43,862 bases of DNA, taken from positions 1-43,862 of IMG/VR virus record IMGVR_UViG_2541047828_000009; one strand, 5' to 3'. The notes beneath the pieces were generated by a model. It did no database searches and had not been told where the DNA came from. It saw only the letters and a list, made by a program, of their open reading frames with translations. The stretch is from a virus (lineage: Duplodnaviria > Heunggongvirae > Uroviricota > Caudoviricetes). Below are positions 2,835 to 15,545 of this stretch, one piece after another (the stretch's first letter is position 1; every line of letters starts with the position of its first letter). The position numbers and the translations under genes were made by a program.

Positions 2835-5800
2835 TTATGCCTGAGTACGCAGCGCTTCAAGGCGGCGCAGGTCGAAGTCGTTCAGTTCGTCGGTGTAGTC
2901 AGCAGTGATTGGCGCTGGCCATTCACCTGTGTCGAATCCGGTTGCGATATTGCGCATCGCTTTGCGGTACTCGAGCATACCCAGCTCCAGTAGTTCAGCG
3001 GATGCCTCGATGATGGCGATCCAGTGGTAGTTCTCGTCTTTGTTGACGAAAATCCAGAAGAACTGATCCAGCGCTGCGGTTTCGCAGTACATAGCCGCGC
3101 TCAGGTGATAATCACGTTCAATAATTTCCCGGTGTAGCCTGGCGCGCAGGCTTTCCTGCTTAACATTCCACATGCTGATGGTTTTCAGGTCAGCACCGAT
3201 ACGCACGCCGTCTAGGTCGATCTCAAGGTCAGGGCGCACACGAACTTCCAGTCCCGTCTCCTCGTCAAAGCCAAAGTAGCTCACCTCAACGGCGCGGCTC
3301 GGGTGGGTTAGCAGCATGCCTGCGGTCGGGTGCGAGAGCAGTGCTGACTGAATTGCCTGCGCGGTGGCAAGTTGCTGGTGGGTAACCAGCACTTTCCCTT
3401 CCGGGTTGTTGCGCCACGCATCGAGCAGCTCGTCGGCGAACACTGCATCTGGTTTGACTGCCTTCACGGCCTGAATCAGATCGGCCTTCGTGCCAGAGAC
3501 TTTCAGCGGTTGCAGCTTCTGAGCTTCCTGCGCGACCAGGTCAGGATTGATAATCGCAAGTTGTTCGAGTAGTGCGTCGCGGCTGCCGCTGGTTTTAATC
3601 TGCGCTGGCAGGGTGGCGTTGTACTCTTTGATGCACGCCTTCATTGCTGTTGCTGTCTTCTTCTGATCTGCATCGATACGTTGGAATTCAGCTGGCAGCG
3701 CCATATAGTTCTGCGCCGTTTCATCCAGGCTAGCGCCCAGCGGCACCAGCGCTGGCAGGGTGGCGTTGTATTCATCCAGCAAAGCTTTGATATCGTCTGC
3801 GCTCAGTTGCGCTGGCAGGCTGGCGTTGTACTCATCAATAAACGCGCGGATCGTTGCCGTGGTGGTAAATGCACCTTCCGGAATTACGGGTTCAACGCTA
3901 AATTCTTCATCGAGCTGTTCTGGCTGCAACGCCAGCGCATGTACCAGGTTTCCCATGTCCAGCACTGAGGAGCGCTCTTTGACGATGGTTTTCTCAACGT
4001 GGCGCGCATTGAAGTACATCAGCGAAACGCGCGCATCTTTTACCTGGGTGGAACTGATGCCGTTGGCAGCGTGGTAAACCTCGTTCGGCAGACCTTCATA
4101 GCGGCCAGGTTCGAAGTAAGCAGGGTACACAACACCCGGTTCGTCAGATTGAGCTTCTGGCTCGGTTTGGGCCGCAACCGGTTCGGTTTGGTTTACAGAA
4201 TCGCTGTTTTGGCTAACAGAATCCGCATTCTGGCTCACATCGGCTTGCTGGCCGGTATGTGACTCTTCACCAGTTTCCAGACTGCTTTCGCCTGACTGCA
4301 CTTCATCACCAGCCTGTTCTTCATCACTGACAGTTTCTTCCATCTGCACATTGCTGGTGGTTTCCTCATTAAGTGGTGAACGGTTATCTGTTTGTGTTTG
4401 TTGATCGCCCATCAGGCCATCAATGGAGAATACGCCGTTGCCCATGTTGGCGATTTGTGGCTGTTTAGCAGCTGTTTTCTGCTCTGCAGCGACCTGCTCA
4501 TTAACCTCATTTTCCCAGCTGACGTCCGGCGCATGACCAGCATCAGCCAGCGTTTCTTCTGAGGGGTTTGAGTGGTCATTTTCGGTTAGATTGGCATTGA
4601 TATATGCCCGCAACCGCCCAGGAAAGTTAACCAATTCTGATGATGTGCCGCGGATGAGTGCAAAGATGGCGGCGCGTGAATAGTCCAGGATGCCAGCGGT
4701 TTTGCGCAGCGCCTCAGACCATTCGCTGAACGGACTTTCTTTCTTGCTGACAATCTCTTTAGCGCGACGGTAGACCCCACCAGGTATGTCGTAGATATTG
4801 AAATCCATTGGCAAGGTGGCCAGCGCAATTTCAACATCCAAAGTGTCCAGTGTGTGGACATAGTCGGTATTACGATCGGTCTTATTTCCACCGCCAGCAT
4901 TGGTTTTGACGTCAGTACGTTGAATCTGCGCAACGCGGTTACCTTTCTGCCATTCCTTGACCAGCAGGCCACGGTCGATGTAATCAGTGTTGAACCACAC
5001 AGTCAGGAACTGGATAACTGTTGCCAGCTCCGGTTTTTTACCGTCGACAGGGAAGACTTTCTTAACAGCATTCACGACTTTATGAATATCGTGCTCAATG
5101 GCTTTTTTGAATGCTTCCACATTCTCAGCAGCCAGCAGCAGGTTCTGGATGTACGTGTCATCAGTGTCCATCTCAAGGCGGACAATCTCGTTTTTCTGCC
5201 CAGCGTCGATGTGATAGAGATATTCACCATCACCGATGAACTGAGCCAGTACGCGCTGACGGAATGGCAGGGTGGCTACGACGATCAGGTTCGGCTGATC
5301 TGGCTGCTGAGATTGTTCTTCGGTACCGACTTCATCACCAACGCTGGTGGTTTCAGTTTTGAGCAGAGGAAACCTTCCACTGCGCCAGTCTTCAACCAGT
5401 TGATTGCGATCACCTGCTTCTGCGTTCACCCAGTCAGACATGAAAGCAGCGATCACTTCAGGTCCATGCTCTTCACCCTGTTCGAAGATGTCTTTAATCG
5501 CCTGAATCATTTTCCACTCAGCATTAAGACTGAGTTCGCCAACTTCAGGAACATCATTTTTAACCTGCAGCAAGTTCTGGAGATAGGTATTGCTTTCGTC
5601 CAGTGACATTTCGCTGGCAGCCAGCTGCTGCTCTTTAGTGACGTGAGTCTGGTACTTATCGCTCATCAGATGGAAGGCAAAACGGACTGCTGGAGTGCGG
5701 TTTTCTAACGATACATTCTCGTCAGAAGTCGCTACTTCATCTGTATTTTTTACATCGGCAGGGATAGTGGTGACAACGTCGCCAGCGGCCTTTGGCAGCC

Positions 5801-6583: not shown

Positions 6584-6835
6584 GATGTTCTCCACTATTG
6601 CTGAGTGAACTTCGCTGGTGGTGCCGTGACGCTGATCTTCACAGTTGAGCGTTTTAACTCTGCAATTCACCACCGCGAAGCTCACTTCTGTGTTTGCCCT
6701 TGTCGCCAGGCTGGCGGAACGTTTCAAACCTACTGCGCGTTAATATCACCACCTCATTCCGGTTTTCGTATGCCCCGGACGGCTACTTCGTGGGCTCCAT
6801 GCCTGGGTGGTTCGTGGTGCGTCTTGGTGATTGCA

Positions 6836-6864
6836 TATTAAGCCTGAGACTTAAATCATGTCAA
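6836..6864 (-). promoter_or_regulatory. pL-like early-left promoter
   Basis: On the minus strand TTGACA, 17-nt spacer, TTAATA; an operator palindrome overlaps the spacer and -10. Confidence 0.5.
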
Positions 6865-6901
6865 GCTCCAGGCGAAATGTGATTGTAAGTTTCAGGCTTA
6901 A
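6838..6901. promoter_or_regulatory. Left operator cluster (OL-like): two 17-bp TTAAG-N7-CTTAA palindromes
   Basis: ttaagcctgagacttaa (6838-6854) and gtaagtttcaggcttaa (6885-6901); the same motif recurs at the right operator. Confidence 0.7.
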
Positions 6902-7005
6902 TCGTGATGTTCACCGAATTGCAGGCAAAAAAAATCCCGACGCTAAGGTCGAGATCGGGGACTTCGTGGCTGGGTGTTGGCGGCTGAGATGGTGGGTGAG
7001 GGTGT

Positions 7006-7034
7006 AAAAAACCGGCGCTGTGGCCGGGTTTTTT
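7006..7034. terminator. Bidirectional rho-independent terminator
   Basis: aaaaaa-CCGGC-gctgtg-GCCGG-gtttttt; A-run on one side and T-run on the other; sits just past the end of the immunity cargo operon. Confidence 0.7.
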
Positions 7035-7036
7035 CA

Positions 7037-7141
7037 TTACTGCTGGTTAAATCCTTTCGGCGAGTGCTGCTGTTCTTTATTACCAAATTTTTGATTTACA
7101 ATGATTTTATAAGCGTTATTGAGAGCTTGCTTTATAGACAT
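7037..7141 (-). CDS. Small ORF (34 aa) downstream of the AT-rich cargo gene
   Basis: Hand translation MSIKQALNNAYKIIVNQKFGNKEQQHSPKGFNQQ; strong AAGGAG RBS 6 nt before the ATG; 17 nt after the stop of the 434-aa gene; followed by the terminator. Confidence 0.4.
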   Translation of the reverse strand: MSIKQALNNAYKIIVNQKFGNKEQQHSPKGFNQQ

Positions 7142-7158
7142 TAATATCTCCTTATGTG

Positions 7159-8463
7159 TTATTGACGATTAAAGTAGTTAGAGTTTAGCTCTTTAGGGAA
7201 GTAGTGTTTACGATTTACCCAAACAAATCCATCAACTTTTGATATCACAGCGACATCAACAGGCCCACCGACAGTTTCATAATCATGTGATACTTTTCTT
7301 TTGAATGCAGTGATGTTCACTAATGATTCGGCCATATACGCAAGATCTGCCTTCCCAAGTGATTGCAACATCGATATCATTTTATTTGTATGGTTATTAA
7401 CAATATAGCTTTCAAGTTTAGTATCGTGATCTTGTAAAAGTACGTTTTTGAGTTCCTCAATTTCACTGGAGAAGTGATTGGCTAGTACTCCATTGTTCAT
7501 TGCAGGGAAAATATTGCTAGAAACATAATGATTAAGCCGATCAAAAACTTCCTCTGTAAGAGTTCTGTTAAAATTAATGATGTTAGGGTTGCACCCATCA
7601 ATGAAAGTTACTACTTCATCTTCTTGAGCAAATGGTATAACAAACCCCATATTGGTTACCTCATTATGGGATTTATCATCAATATTATGGATCATCAATT
7701 TGTTTTTAAAAATGCCGTAGATATGAAGAGTGCAAATGGAAGGGTAATATTCTTCCTCTCCATAACCTGTTATAACAATCCCTGAATATGTACGACTAGC
7801 ATGGACTTTGAAAATTAAACAAGTGGAATATAATATGACTTTTTCCATAAGCTCTTGCTGTATATTTTCACAGTTATCAAGAACAATAATTGATGAAATG
7901 TATGGCGATATTAAATCTTGTATATATGCTAAAGCATCATTAAACTCTTCTGTATCAAACCCTTCGAAAAAGAGATTATTCCTTAAGATTCCTATCTCTA
8001 AATCAAAGGCTTGCTTAACTATGTTTTGAAAAATAACATTGTCGAGTTCAACGGCGGGGTTCATTGTTAAATAGTTTACTACATTATTATCATTAATGTA
8101 TCTCATCAAACCTTTGAGGTTATCAACAACAAGGTTTATAACGCAAGCCTCTCTCATTTCATTTGTTATAAGGTCTGAGTTACCATTGATGAATTTTACA
8201 AAGTCATTAACATATTCTTTAATGGTAGGGAAACTAGTTTTCCCCAATTGTTTTCTATAGGATTTAATTATAAGTTCCCACGGTGCGCCACCCAGTGTCG
8301 CATTATTATAAATCATGATCCCCACGGGATGGTGTTTAGATAGTTCGAATAGTTTTTCCGCACTATTATTTATTTTTACTAATCTATTATGCTCTGTGGT
8401 GACTGCAGAGTCAGCAGCAAGGGCGATTCCAGTATTATTTATTACAACAATCTCAGCTGTCAT
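7159..8463 (-). CDS. AT-rich hypothetical protein (434 aa), candidate superinfection-exclusion or abortive-infection factor
   Basis: Start chosen at ATG 8463 (MTAEIVVINNTGIALAADSAVT); an in-frame ATGATG at 8562 would give the 467-aa track ORF; codon usage conspicuously AT-rich versus flanks; co-oriented immediately downstream of the repressor. Confidence 0.7.
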   Translation of the reverse strand: MTAEIVVINNTGIALAADSAVTTEHNRLVKINNSAEKLFELSKHHPVGIMIYNNATLGGAPWELIIKSYRKQLGKTSFPTIKEYVNDFVKFINGNSDLITNEMREACVINLVVDNLKGLMRYINDNNVVNYLTMNPAVELDNVIFQNIVKQAFDLEIGILRNNLFFEGFDTEEFNDALAYIQDLISPYISSIIVLDNCENIQQELMEKVILYSTCLIFKVHASRTYSGIVITGYGEEEYYPSICTLHIYGIFKNKLMIHNIDDKSHNEVTNMGFVIPFAQEDEVVTFIDGCNPNIINFNRTLTEEVFDRLNHYVSSNIFPAMNNGVLANHFSSEIEELKNVLLQDHDTKLESYIVNNHTNKMISMLQSLGKADLAYMAESLVNITAFKRKVSHDYETVGGPVDVAVISKVDGFVWVNRKHYFPKELNSNYFNRQ

Positions 8464-8604
8464 TGCAAAACATCCCGTGTAGTAGTGATAAATATTAATT
8501 AAATTGATAGTTTTTTTCAATCTAACATAAATGGCGGAATCACCCCCCAGTAAAGACATCATTGTCTCATGGGAACTAAAAATTCAGGACAAACCTAAAG
8601 CGAT

Positions 8605-8991
8605 TCAGTCCCCCTGCGAGCGAATCCGCCCCTTCATGTACTTCTCATACAGCTCATCCAGTTCCTTAAGACGTATCGAAAAGATGCGGAGCATGTTCTG
8701 TTGCTCTTCTTCTGGCAGCTGGCGGTAGAGCTCAAGCAGGCGCTGTTCGTCCGGCTTAAGTCCGTCCTTCTCGCCGACATCCTCACCGAGTAACCAAGGC
8801 ACAGACACGCCAGCTGCGTCAGCGACAGCGAGAGCTGATTTCTTGCTGATCACGCCTTTTTTAAACCAGCCGTTCACAGACTGCGGGGTTACCCCAGCAA
8901 CCCTGGCCATATCGGATTTGGTCATACCGCGCCCGTTCAGCTCTGAAAGGCGTTCGACAAGTATCGGATTAAGTACGGTTTTCTCTTTCAT
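8605..8991 (-). CDS. Prophage repressor, XRE-type HTH (cI functional analogue), 128 aa
   Basis: HTH segment MTKSDMARVAGVTPQSVNGWFKKG; divergent from the cro-like gene across an operator cluster; no SD before the ATG (leaderless-like, as for lambda cI from pRM); no C-terminal S24 peptidase domain. Confidence 0.8.
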   Translation of the reverse strand: MKEKTVLNPILVERLSELNGRGMTKSDMARVAGVTPQSVNGWFKKGVISKKSALAVADAAGVSVPWLLGEDVGEKDGLKPDEQRLLELYRQLPEEEQQNMLRIFSIRLKELDELYEKYMKGRIRSQGD

Positions 8992-9001
8992 GGTTAGAAG
9001 A

Positions 9002-9067
9002 ATAAGCCTTTTGCTTAAACTTGAAAATTCGCCTCAGGCTTGACAATAAATTAAGTCTCAGGCTTAA
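9002..9067. promoter_or_regulatory. Right operator cluster (OR-like): three TTAAG-N7-CTTAA-type sites
   Basis: ataagccttttgcttaa (9002-9018), weaker ttcgcctcaggcttgac (9028-9044), ttaagtctcaggcttaa (9051-9067). Confidence 0.7.
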
Positions 9068-9068
9068 T
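9040..9068 (+). promoter_or_regulatory. pR-like early-right promoter
   Basis: Perfect -35 TTGACA at 9040-9045, 17/18-nt spacer containing an operator site, -10-like CTTAAT/TTAATT. Confidence 0.55.
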
Positions 9069-9095
9069 TTGATTGTATTCAAATCGGAGACAACG

Positions 9096-9314
9096 ATGAA
9101 CGGGTTAACGAAAGCCATTAAGTCCGCTGGCACTGCAACAAATCTCGCAACCATGCTGGGCATCAAGCCGATGTCGGTCAGCCGCTGGAAAAACCGGTAC
9201 CAGGGCGTGGTGCCTGCTGATCGGGTCCTTCAAATCTACGCGGCTACCGGCGTAACTCCACACGAGCTGCGCCCTGATCTCTATCCAAATCCCACTGACG
9301 GATTACCAAAGTAG
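9096..9314 (+). CDS. Cro/YdaS-like HTH regulator (72 aa)
   Basis: ATG 9096 with GGAGA 5 nt upstream; HTH segment TATNLATMLGIKPMSVSRWKNR; divergent from the repressor. Confidence 0.7.
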   Translation: MNGLTKAIKSAGTATNLATMLGIKPMSVSRWKNRYQGVVPADRVLQIYAATGVTPHELRPDLYPNPTDGLPK

Positions 9315-9325
9315 GAGCACTGACA

Positions 9326-9883
9326 ATGCAAACACTTTCTTTTCAACAGAATAACAGAGCGCCATCAGAGCACCTGAAATTCCAGTATCAACACAGTGAG
9401 GCTGAAGGCCAGCCGGTCGATCACCGGGCTATCTGTTCTGCCGTCCGCGCCTGGGCGGCGGCAGAGGGCCGCGTGGCGGTCGCTCTGGCGATTAAAGAGG
9501 CTGCCGAACAGGCCGAGCTTGACAGCATTGACATGACCGGCAGCGCCGATGTGTGGAACGTGAAGCTGTTTCGCTGGCTGGACAACCACGAGAAATCACC
9601 GGCCTACCGGGCGAACGTCGAGCAGCTGGCGCCGGTAATAATTTCGGTTCTGCCGCTGGCGTACCGGGATCGCGTGATTAAGCACGACTGCTTTGCGGTT
9701 CGTGTCGCCAGGTCGGTGAAAGAAGACGCTGAGGCGATACAGGCTGTCGTCCTCAAAGCCCCCAGACACGAACGGATGAAGGAAATCAGCGAGAGCATCG
9801 TAGCTAAGCTCTACCTGGACGGACCTGATTCTGTGGCGCCCATTATGGCGATGGTTACAACGATGCTGGGTGGTGCGCTATGA
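9326..9883 (+). CDS. YdaT-like protein (putative cII-type early regulator)
   Basis: 185 aa, AGGAG RBS; position directly after the cro-like gene; family assignment from memory only. Confidence 0.4.
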   Translation: MQTLSFQQNNRAPSEHLKFQYQHSEAEGQPVDHRAICSAVRAWAAAEGRVAVALAIKEAAEQAELDSIDMTGSADVWNVKLFRWLDNHEKSPAYRANVEQLAPVIISVLPLAYRDRVIKHDCFAVRVARSVKEDAEAIQAVVLKAPRHERMKEISESIVAKLYLDGPDSVAPIMAMVTTMLGGAL

Positions 9884-12410: not shown

Positions 12411-12437
12411 ACCCGCTACGGCGGGTTTTCTTTTTTT
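12411..12437 (+). terminator. Rho-independent terminator
   Basis: aCCCGC-tacg-GCGGGt stem followed by a T-run. Confidence 0.7.
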
Positions 12438-12499: not shown

Positions 12500-12519
12500 T
12501 ACTGTATAAAAACACAGTA
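12500..12519. promoter_or_regulatory. LexA (SOS) box overlapping the dinI-like promoter
   Basis: taCTGTataaaaacACAGta fits CTGT-N8-ACAG; TTGATA is 17 nt upstream; gene starts 18 nt downstream. Confidence 0.75.
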
Positions 12520-12537: not shown

Positions 12538-12771
12538 ATGAAAGTTGAATTAACCATTGATCGTATGAAAGAACTTCCTAAAGGCGCAGTACCAGCACTG
12601 GAGAAAGAACTGCTTAAGCGCCTGAATGATCACTATGACAATTGCAGGCTCACAATCCGCCGTGCCGGGGCCGATGGGTTAAGTGTTTTTGGTGGTGACA
12701 AGGACGATAAAAAGAAAATTGAATCAATCCTCCAGGATACCTGGGAAAGCGCTGACGACTGGTTTTATTAG
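12538..12771 (+). CDS. dinI: DinI-family DNA damage-inducible protein
   Basis: MKVELTIDRMKELPKGAV ... ILQDTWESADDWFY matches the DinI N- and C-terminal signatures; LexA box upstream. Confidence 0.85.
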   Translation: MKVELTIDRMKELPKGAVPALEKELLKRLNDHYDNCRLTIRRAGADGLSVFGGDKDDKKKIESILQDTWESADDWFY

Positions 12772-12888: not shown

Positions 12889-13137
12889 GTGAGTGATTCA
12901 GCTTTGCAAACGTCAGAAGACAACTGGTATGACATTGTAAGAAGGTCTGACGGCTGCGTGGTGTTTAGCTTTCCTTCATCGGGCAGGCATCTAATTTATC
13001 GCGTCAATGGCATGGTTTCTATGCGGCCTTTGCTGGATGATGAAGAGGTCTTTACTCCTAATGGTTTTATGCAGTTTATTCACCGTCTCGGCTACCGGGT
13101 AACCCCACCTTCTGATAATATGAAATCAACGGTCTGA
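12889..13137 (+). CDS. Hypothetical nin-region protein (82 aa)
   Basis: GTG start with GAAGGGAGA RBS; no recognisable domain. Confidence 0.45.
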   Translation: MSDSALQTSEDNWYDIVRRSDGCVVFSFPSSGRHLIYRVNGMVSMRPLLDDEEVFTPNGFMQFIHRLGYRVTPPSDNMKSTV

Positions 13138-13171: not shown

Positions 13172-13771
13172 ATGGCGCACGAACTACAACTCATCAAGCA
13201 TTCCTCAGGAATCCTGATCCCCGCTACGCCGGAGACCAGTGATTTACTGCAATCAAAAATCAAACTCGGCTCCGTACTGGTGGCTGAGTTCCGGCAGGTA
13301 CGCAACCCGGCCTTTCACCGTCGTTTCTTCGCGTTACTCAATCTCGGTTTCGAATACTGGGAACCCACCGGCGGGGCAATCTCCTCCAACGAACGCAAGC
13401 TGGTAACCGGCTATGCCAAGTTCCTTGCCTCATTCGCGGGAAGTGAAGCAGCACTCCTGGATGCTGCTGAGCAATATCTGGACCGCATCGCCGATAAGCG
13501 TACTGGTAGCATCTGCGCCTGTAAGTCATTCGATGCATATCGTGCATGGGTCACTATTGAGTCCGGCCATTACGACGCCATTCAGCTGCCTGACGGCACC
13601 CTCCGCAAACATCCCCGCAGTATCTCATTCGCAAATATGGATGAAACTGAGTTCCAGCAGCTGTACAAAGCCGCGCTCGATGTTCTGTGGCGATGGATAC
13701 TCTCCCGATCATTTCGCAGTTGTGAAGAGGCAGAAAACGCCGCCGCCCAGCTGATGAGCTTTGCGGGGTGA
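13172..13771 (+). CDS. Hypothetical nin-region protein (199 aa)
   Basis: GGAGAGA RBS; conserved-looking phage protein of unknown function. Confidence 0.6.
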   Translation: MAHELQLIKHSSGILIPATPETSDLLQSKIKLGSVLVAEFRQVRNPAFHRRFFALLNLGFEYWEPTGGAISSNERKLVTGYAKFLASFAGSEAALLDAAEQYLDRIADKRTGSICACKSFDAYRAWVTIESGHYDAIQLPDGTLRKHPRSISFANMDETEFQQLYKAALDVLWRWILSRSFRSCEEAENAAAQLMSFAG

Positions 13772-15461: not shown

Positions 15462-15514
15462 TCATGTAAATCTGATATCGTCGCCATAGCTTCGTAGGTC
15501 GACAAAGAATTAAG

Positions 15515-15545
15515 AGCCTCGCCATCGTGCGGGGCTTTTTTATTT
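15515..15545 (+). terminator. Rho-independent terminator (first of a tandem pair)
   Basis: agcctcgc-catcgt-gcggggct stem then TTTTTTATTTGCG. Confidence 0.7.

Follow-up and report, generated by a model that had tools for sequence, protein, structure and literature searches.

The closest described counterparts of the locus considered here are the immunity regions of the prophages CP-933P, Rac and Gifsy-1 and of phage lambda; the locus itself lies at positions 6836–9068 of a 43,862-nucleotide stretch of a Caudoviricetes virus (IMG/VR record IMGVR_UViG_2541047828_000009), the whole of which we call the window. In CP-933P (Jurenas et al. 2021, PMC8630535) the operators over PR and PRM have been footprinted; PL, with its three left operators (OL), is repressed ~100-fold by PaaR2 and YdaS, and paaR2 was found to be leaderless by rapid amplification of 5′ cDNA ends (5′RACE), N-terminal sequencing and mass spectrometry. 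In Rac, the strongest racR promoter (PracR3) is leaderless, and the ydaS promoter, with its mapped start, comprises a TTGACA followed by a TAATAT that starts with the outer TAA of an operator (PMC9638921). The Gifsy repressors are non-cleaved and dimeric and are paired with a LexA-controlled dinI–antirepressor operon; GfoR has been shown experimentally to confer immunity, and the promoter of gfhR is situated between two AUGs of the same frame (Lemire et al. 2011, PMC3121763). Against this backdrop, we propose that the window carries the immunity region of a lambdoid, Gifsy/Rac-like Escherichia coli prophage, a reading to which we attach a probability of roughly 0.85; the 17-bp palindromes that flank this region are, by sequence and comparative analysis, almost certainly real binding sites for its repressor and Cro. 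The region is 100% identical to a prophage adjoining kch in E. coli 20KM2222.

The palindrome in question, TTAAG-N7-CTTAA, had been reported by a first-pass annotation as occurring twice at the left boundary and three times at the right. Its exact form is matched twice in the 43.9 kb against 0.01 expected, and at least two matches were obtained in 0 of 100 shuffles; with up to one mismatch there are four matches against 0.88 expected, all four of them in the two proposed control regions. A chance origin is ruled out by these shuffles together with the count of 0 matches in 215 kb of the other flank of the related loci described below. The dyad is not confined to the 5-bp arms: in both perfect sites, 7 of 8 symmetric pairs are present. 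On the left, the sites at 6838–6854 (TTAAGCCTGAGACTTAA) and 6885–6901 (GTAAGTTTCAGGCTTAA) stand where they were first placed, but their number does not, a third, middle site at 6861–6877 (reverse complement TTTCGCCTGGAGCTTGA) having been missed. On the right, the same holds for 9002–9018 (ATAAGCCTTTTGCTTAA) and 9051–9067 (TTAAGTCTCAGGCTTAA), the latter being the exact reverse complement of 6838–6854, whereas the weaker site had been read one base out of register: at 9028–9044 only 4 of the 10 specified bases match the motif, and the register 9027–9043 (ATTCGCCTCAGGCTTGA) agrees with the strongest site at 12 of 17 positions, chiefly in the right half. When reverse-complemented, the left region aligns to the right region over ~75 bp, spanning the three sites and the -35 hexamer, and inverted repeats are seen too. 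The site centres fall at 6846, 6869 and 6893 on the left and at 9010, 9035 and 9059 on the right, with a spacing of 23–25 bp. The layout is one of three predicted sites on either side, the left region being an inverted paralogue of the right, and the six-site 17-bp consensus derived from them is nTAAG-yC-N3-Gr-CTTAn.

Each site occupies a characteristic position relative to the predicted promoters. The pL-proximal operator OL1 (6838–6854), an exact match, lies between the -35 and -10 of pL and recurs in 67 of 68 related loci; the half-conserved middle operator OL2 (6861–6877) lies over the pL -35 and emerges from the left/right alignment and the inverted repeat; the distal OL3 (6885–6901), with one mismatch, is always 46–47 bp from OL1 in relatives. 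Of the right operators (OR), the repressor-proximal one (9002–9018; one mismatch) is in the position of lambda OR3, within the spacer and -10 of the putative pRM, and is almost invariant in relatives; the middle one (9027–9043) is in the OR2 position, overlaps the pR -35 and abuts the pRM -35, with outer bases kept and a variable centre in relatives; the cro-proximal one (9051–9067), an exact match, corresponds in position to OR1, covers the spacer and -10 of pR and is the sole OR 17-mer that recurs at OL in relatives. The relatives of OL2 have TTCGCC-N5-CTTGA, and the retention of this string at both ends argues that the middle sites function as weak operators in addition to providing the -35 elements of pR and pL.

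The evidence that carries the assignment to immunity comes from comparison across relatives. In an IMG/VR survey, 430 viral contigs were found to encode a relative of the repressor, and 80 loci were kept, 68 of this type and 12 of a sister type. In a motif-free comparison of 17-mers, it was always the cro-proximal operator, among the OR words, that turned up again downstream of the repressor gene. Across the 68 loci of this type, OR contains 134 matches to TAAG-N7-CTTA (two, 49 bp apart, in 66 loci and one in 2), the downstream side contains 132, and 214.8 kb of the other flank contains 0; the downstream pairs are 46–47 bp apart in 67 of the 68, the exception having only 765 bp of downstream sequence. 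In the 12 sister-type loci, TAAA-N7-TTTA occurs 24 times in OR, 21 times downstream and 0 times in 39.4 kb of the other flank, and the TAAG motif is absent from all 12 (0 matches). Conversely, the TAAA motif appears in loci of this type as scattered singles only (1 in OR, 10 downstream, 2 in the other flank). A footprint of 51 distinct OR and 56 distinct OL variants finds the outer TAAG/CTTAA, the -35 hexamers and an AGAATA (the pRM -10) nearly invariant, and the operator centres and inter-site spacers varying freely.

The same exchange can be seen in bacterial genomes. E. coli NADC1036, M172-1, ET881 and 1368KP retain the same kil, ydaE and ydaT flanks around a different repressor N-terminal half (...TPQAVNGW...) and a different YdaS, and their sites at both OL and OR read nTAAAyC-N3-GrTTTAn. 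At OL, the exchange in these strains amounts to a ~95-bp cassette between identical flanks, and in the repressor the N-terminal half, and only that half, was swapped together with the operators and Cro. The YdaS alleles split exactly with the repressor alleles. Seven positions in the repressor DNA-binding domain (L18I, G20D/E/N, M23V, S26A, S38A, V62I and P65A), plus the N-terminal arm, fully separate the two types, the operators of which differ essentially at position 5/13 of the 17-mer, G:C in this type versus A:T in the sister type. Moreover, parts of the region are found in 106 of 5426 complete E. coli genomes, and the OL and OR modules each in exactly the same 12. Two claims of the first-pass annotation are supported: that both ends carry the same operator (by the motif-free 17-mer comparison and the shared 12 of 5426 genomes), and that these sites define immunity specificity (by the perfect reciprocity of operator type with the repressor and Cro alleles in the 80 loci and in the E. 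coli swaps). We consider this strong, if indirect, evidence that OL and OR share these sites as the operators that determine specificity.

Two other explanations of the repeats bear on these data. The sites might mainly be bound by YdaS/Cro or another factor, with the 128-aa helix-turn-helix (HTH) protein recognizing something else or not being the immunity repressor at all. The operators track the YdaS alleles no less perfectly than they do the repressor alleles, and for this reason co-variation alone cannot separate the two proteins; further, S38A is the only difference in the recognition helix between the two repressor types, and the YdaS alleles differ more. We nonetheless judge this improbable: repressor and Cro share operators in every characterized relative (lambda, CP-933P, Rac and Gifsy), the gene position, orientation, HTH_3 domain and GfoR-like termini fit a repressor role, immunity has been shown for GfoR (PMC3121763), and it is the N-terminal half of the repressor alone that is exchanged along with the operators. 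Alternatively, the repeats might have arisen only because a promoter was duplicated, pL and pR being paralogues kept as RNA polymerase signals and not as operators bound by a regulator. The two strongest sites are indeed contained in homologous promoters, the -35 elements of which are identical and the -10 elements similar, such that part of their conservation might reflect promoter function. However, the same dyad is present in the distal OL site and in the repressor-proximal OR site, neither of which overlaps pR or pL; the retention of both half-sites around variable centres is the signature of dimeric binding sites; and in the sister allele all four strong sites are altered at position 5/13, in concert with the HTH alleles, with the promoter hexamer positions kept. 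We hold the duplicated promoter to be the most improbable of the alternatives that we considered.

Turning to the promoters, the predicted pL (6835–6864, minus strand) comprises a TTGACA (6864–6859), which is invariant in relatives, an 18-bp spacer and a TAATAT (6840–6835), scores 10/12 in the scan and reads leftward into kil, ydaE, recE and recT. OL1 occupies its spacer and OL2 covers its -35. The predicted pR (9040–9070, plus strand), homologous to pL, has a TTGACA at 9040–9045 and as its -10 either TAATTT (9065–9070; 19-bp spacer) or CTTAAT (9063–9068; 17-bp spacer); its GGCTTAATTT is invariant in relatives. The perfect TTGACA elements that had been claimed to overlap the sites are both present, on the minus strand for pL and on the plus strand for pR, but the pR -10 is weak and was not called. 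The putative pRM (8999–9027, minus strand) consists of TTTTCA (9027–9022), a 17-bp spacer and TATTCT (9004–8999), the last of which ends 7 nt before the repressor ATG at 8991, the intervening bases being TCTAACC.

No Shine–Dalgarno (SD)-like string is found within 17 nt of this ATG (upstream sequence ...TATTCTTCTAACCATG), just as the first-pass annotation had stated, and none of the 26 distinct upstream variants of this type has one there; the only candidate, AAGG at -18/-19, lies inside the operator and is too distant upstream for such a role. A leaderless repressor mRNA from pRM, which had been put forward on this basis, is consistent with the sequence, given the conserved -10-like hexamer, the missing SD and the precedents of paaR2, racR and gfhR; we regard it as plausible and, on balance, probable. 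The competing possibility is that the mRNA is not leaderless, being made from one or more other upstream promoters without a canonical SD, or that the true start codon is elsewhere. In its favor, racR has three mapped promoters of which one is leaderless (PMC9638921), Gifsy-3, when induced, produces a GfhR* with an N-terminal extension from a promoter located upstream (PMC3121763), and the putative pRM matches the consensus at only 8 of 12 positions and is uncalled by the scan. Nevertheless, we hold it to be unlikely. A TA[TC]TCT hexamer is fixed 6–7 nt upstream of the ATG (at -13/-12) in 26 of 26 distinct upstream variants, in which the bases between hexamer and ATG vary but never form an SD; the sister allele has a near-consensus TACAAT at -12 to -7 of an internal ATG; the leaderless starts of paaR2 and racR were established by 5′RACE, protein sequencing or primer extension (PMC8630535, PMC9638921); and PGAP selects the same start (8991) as we do here. 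For the sister-allele repressor, PGAP picks a GTG that lies upstream of both the TACAAT hexamer and the internal ATG, on account of which that start is probably wrong.

The repressor itself (8605–8991, minus strand; 128 aa) is made up of a Pfam HTH_3 domain and a short helical C-terminal domain, and matches phrog_8 and phrog_4. No S24 peptidase domain was detected, Pfam giving HTH_3 alone above threshold along with other weak sub-threshold HTH matches. While predicted to work like cI, the protein is outside the cleavable cI/LexA family, which is defined by an S24 domain with an Ala-Gly site. Its termini, MKEKT... and ...EKYMKGRIRSQGD, match those of GfoR as encoded by published primers (MKEKTHQIN... 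and ...EKYMKGRIRTRED). Its size and domains likewise fit a place in the non-cleavable family of the Gifsy-1 repressor GfoR, to which we would assign it, the comparison being one of termini only. Orthology with RacR was rejected, the identity being 44% over 32 residues only and the operators different, and a search of solved structures with the repressor returned only spurious polyubiquitin matches (residues 72–94). Among cultured phages, its relatives are found in SW-37 (86% protein identity), PHB10 (84%), SEN34 (82%) and mEp237 (74%), in which this repressor family has generic annotation only. In E. coli 1368KP, SEN34 and mEp237, a second, paralogous GfoR/GfhR-like HTH gene (L003 3158–3553, L123 3412–3813 and L124 3904–4296 in our locus numbering) lies in the cargo slot, directly downstream of the repressor gene; it could be a second immunity function or an antirepressor decoy.

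An induction module of the Gifsy kind is found ~0.9 kb downstream of the replication genes: a terminator (~12411–12436), a consensus LexA box recovered by pattern search (CTGTATAAAAACACAG, 12502–12517, plus strand) in the position given in the Gifsy description (PMC3121763), a dinI homologue (12538–12771, plus strand; PF06183), an 82-aa ORF (open reading frame) with a GTG start at 12889 (12889–13137, plus strand) and a DUF1367 gene (13172–13771). The 82-aa product, a putative GfoA-type antirepressor, has ends (MSDSALQ and VTPPSD) that resemble the MSNSALQ and VTPPSDI encoded by the gfoA primers. As the repressor appears to be of the non-cleavable GfoR type, we infer that induction would proceed via this SOS-controlled antirepressor and not by cleavage.

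Briefly, we advance the following mechanism. The 128-aa GfoR-family repressor and YdaS would share the six sites, three in OL (6838–6901) and three in OR (9002–9067). In the lysogen, repressor dimers would fill the strong promoter-proximal sites, assisted by the weaker middle sites, and thereby block pR and pL, since the sites cover the -35, spacer and -10 of each. Repressor on the middle right site, which abuts the weak pRM -35, would probably stimulate pRM, and the repressor-proximal site within pRM might serve to shut it off at high repressor levels or on Cro binding. Transcription from pRM is predicted to begin with the A of the repressor ATG, or very close to it, yielding a leaderless mRNA, and would run on through a proteasome-fold gene and a 34-aa ORF to terminators at 7012–7027 and 6933–6956. 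On induction, SOS would lift LexA from 12502–12517, and the GfoA-type antirepressor (12889–13137) would strip the repressor from DNA.

Several points weigh against this picture or some part of it. The middle sites match in one half-site only, and their occupancy depends on an assumed cooperativity. The -10 of pR is weak, TAATTT requiring a 19-bp spacer, and the consensus scan called neither pR nor pRM. If transcription begins at 8991, the center of the middle right site falls near -44; OR2 of lambda is a few base pairs closer, and this greater distance makes pRM activation uncertain. Promoter-like hexamers at 8520–8492, between the repressor stop and the start of the proteasome-fold cargo gene, indicate that the cargo may be under a promoter of its own. 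The identities with GfoR and GfoA draw on terminal residues deduced from published primers only. The 80 loci are for the most part rather closely related, and the counts overstate the number of independent events. Finally, a literature search for the operator sequence turned up no paper containing the site.

The region between the repressor gene and OL constitutes a cargo slot, which bears out the earlier claim that a cargo operon is pinned inside the immunity region: in every relative the slot is bounded by the repressor and OL. From repressor stop to OL it measures 133–2040 bp, and 73 ORF clusters occur in it across the 80 loci; 6 of 10 slot representatives match known or candidate defense models (BstA, PDC-M66A/B, PDC-M63B, HEC-04 and PDC-M11A). 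Judged by these contents, the slot is a hypervariable defense hotspot. The same cargoes occur behind both immunity types; therefore cargo and immunity reassort independently. No terminator-like site was found by the scan between repressor and cargo, and two follow the cassette, a bidirectional hairpin that closes it (7012–7027, called on both strands) and a hairpin with a T-run upstream of OL (6933–6956, minus strand, that of the repressor), the latter being conserved, in either immunity type, on the side of the OL cassette that faces the cargo. Thus, the cargo cassette is likely to be co-transcribed with the repressor from pRM.

In the window, the slot is occupied by a cargo gene of low GC content (31–36%; 7159–8463, minus strand), encoding 434 aa from the ATG at 8463 (467 aa in the longest ORF, to 8562), and by an unannotated 34-aa ORF (7037–7141, minus strand) with an AAGGAG SD. 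The cargo product is an N-terminal nucleophile (Ntn) hydrolase-type protein with the alpha-beta-beta-alpha fold of the proteasome-beta/HslV type and an N-terminal Thr nucleophile. It has more than 6150 homologues of ~430 aa, every source-given name of which is hypothetical or uncharacterized, and the family is marked by an invariant Met-Thr2, D18, K30/K37 and GGPxDVA. Neither the cargo nor its 34-aa partner obtained any match from PADLOC, Pfam or NCBIfam, and a keyword search of the literature for proteasome/Ntn-hydrolase anti-phage defense in prophages returned nothing relevant. Distant homologues in Citrobacter, Vibrio and Pectobacterium reside in other prophage accessory slots, where they are always followed by an ORF of 34–54 aa, the counterpart of the small partner seen here. 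We tentatively suggest, as an idea that could well prove wrong, that the slot is a lysogen-expressed defense hotspot and that its occupant is an unrecognized anti-phage or exclusion cassette, transcribed from pRM and belonging to a family that moves between prophage accessory slots. Such a cassette would comprise a ~430-aa proteasome-beta-fold protein, in which the N-terminal Thr is invariant and the helical insertions are long, together with the partner ORF of 34–54 aa.

The gene order runs from integrase through recT, recE (1111 aa), ydaE and kil (phrog_294) to OL and the two terminator-like hairpins, then onward through the 34-aa ORF, the low-GC 467-aa ORF, the 128-aa HTH_3 repressor, OR, YdaS, YdaT, O and P, and on the right through dinI to Q and the lysis genes. 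The repressor gene and ydaS are divergent and separated by a 104-bp gap. The Cro-like YdaS (9096–9314, plus strand; 72 aa) matches PF15943 at 1.2e-14, above the gathering score, resembles the solved Cro structure PDB 3bd1 and has a GGAG SD 7 nt upstream. The cII-like YdaT (9326–9883, plus strand; 185 aa) matches PF06254 at 1.5e-17, also above the gathering score, and phrog_163, a CII-like activator. The YdaT site TTGATT-N6-AATCAA is matched 5 times against 2.6 expected, which is no enrichment, and not once between ydaS and ydaT, for which reasons a pRE-like site could not be assigned. In the pL leader, a homologue of the small RNA (sRNA) KilS was sought, with no nucleotide similarity to K-12 and no Rfam match there.

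A few observations concern other parts of the window. An Rfam match to isrJ, an Hfq-binding sRNA, lies upstream of Q (15465–15538, plus strand; 68.7 bits, the gathering score being 37). Besides the one described above, a further LexA box, nearly perfect (TACTGTATATAAAAACAGTA, 42919–42934), is situated just upstream of an unannotated ORF of ~96 aa (42956–43246), which may be a second SOS-controlled gene and adjoins an invertase-like gene that extends from 43315 to the end of the window. The pattern CTGT-N8-ACAG also occurs inside the cargo gene (7858–7873) and recE (4204–4219).

In terms of significance, these results fix the boundaries, promoters and specificity determinants of one Gifsy/Rac-like immunity group, which includes the viable phages SEN34, SW-37, PHB10 and mEp237 and the operators of which seem to have been undescribed before. 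The sister alleles, which differ essentially by 1 bp in each half-site (TAAG in one type, TAAA in the other) and by a few residues, S26A and S38A among them, may represent a natural minimal specificity switch; they offer a compact natural system for studying the evolution of heteroimmunity. With OL and the repressor recognized, the slot lends itself to automated extraction, as a defense-gene hotspot, from hundreds of prophages, and here it points to an uncharacterized proteasome-fold cassette. Greater novelty lies in two leads, the specificity difference of a single base pair between the sister types and this cassette in the defense hotspot.

Compared with known systems, the locus presents the features of a lambda-type bipartite switch: a divergent repressor and cro, regularly spaced dyad operators over pR and pRM, their recurrence at pL, and co-variation of operators with the proteins. 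As in lambda, there are three operators per side ~24 bp apart, overlapping pR and pL, with ~2.2 kb between OL and OR, a weak pRM, putatively leaderless here, and a slot between the repressor gene and OL that in lambda houses the lysogen-expressed exclusion genes rexAB. Unlike lambda, the repressor is without the S24 autocleavage domain of cI, the operator sequence is unrelated, Cro is of the all-alpha YdaS/P22-Cro type and no N gene was identified in the pL operon. With Rac of E. coli K-12 it shares the order kil, ydaE ... repressor, ydaS, ydaT, three intergenic dyad operators with another downstream of racR, a leaderless repressor promoter (putative here), and a ydaS promoter of TTGACA and TAATAT overlapped by an operator; however, RacR has 158 aa, with 44% identity over 32 residues, and its operators are (T/A)TAGGC-N3-GCCTA(T/A), which leaves the locus outside the RacR immunity group (a RacR orthologue together with TAGGC-N3-GCCTA). 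In K-12 Rac, a TAGGC-N3-GCCTA operator (L122 2139–2170) lies ~110 bp downstream of the racR stop, with sieB, ydaF and ydaG beyond; the Rac OL seems to sit immediately beside racR, with no cargo slot.

With Gifsy-1, the likeness extends to a small repressor lacking S24 with the termini MKEKT... and ...EKYMKGRIR..., a recE/recT-type left arm, and the terminator, LexA box, dinI, GfoA-ended ORF and DUF1367, the terminator, LexA box, dinI and small antirepressor gene being placed downstream of the replication genes in the Gifsy manner. The N-terminal arms differ, MKEKTHQIN in GfoR versus MKEKTVLNP here, as do the hosts, Salmonella versus E. coli; because of the difference in the arm, the immunity type may not be that of GfoR, for which we found no operators at the sequence level in PMC3121763. 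CP-933P resembles the locus in its divergent small HTH repressor and YdaS with an intergenic region of ~100 bp, its YdaT as a cII analogue, several dyad operators over PR/PRM, a PL whose -35 and -10 match and which has three OL past the repressor operon, and a cargo downstream of the repressor inside the operator-bounded region; the leaderless repressor mRNA of CP-933P and the co-transcription of its cargo are predicted here as well. As in CP-933P and Rac, YdaS (PF15943) and YdaT (PF06254) come first in the pR operon. CP-933P differs in its half-site (GTTTAGTAA, in 18-bp palindromes), PaaR2 being likened by architecture and not by sequence, and in its cargo, the paaA2–parE2 toxin–antitoxin pair versus a proteasome-fold protein and a 34-aa ORF here; further, CP-933P is cryptic, whereas the present prophage looks complete. 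On the evidence of its predicted parts, then, the locus is a lambda-style switch of known mechanism, the operator sequence of which differs from those of CP-933P, Rac and lambda.

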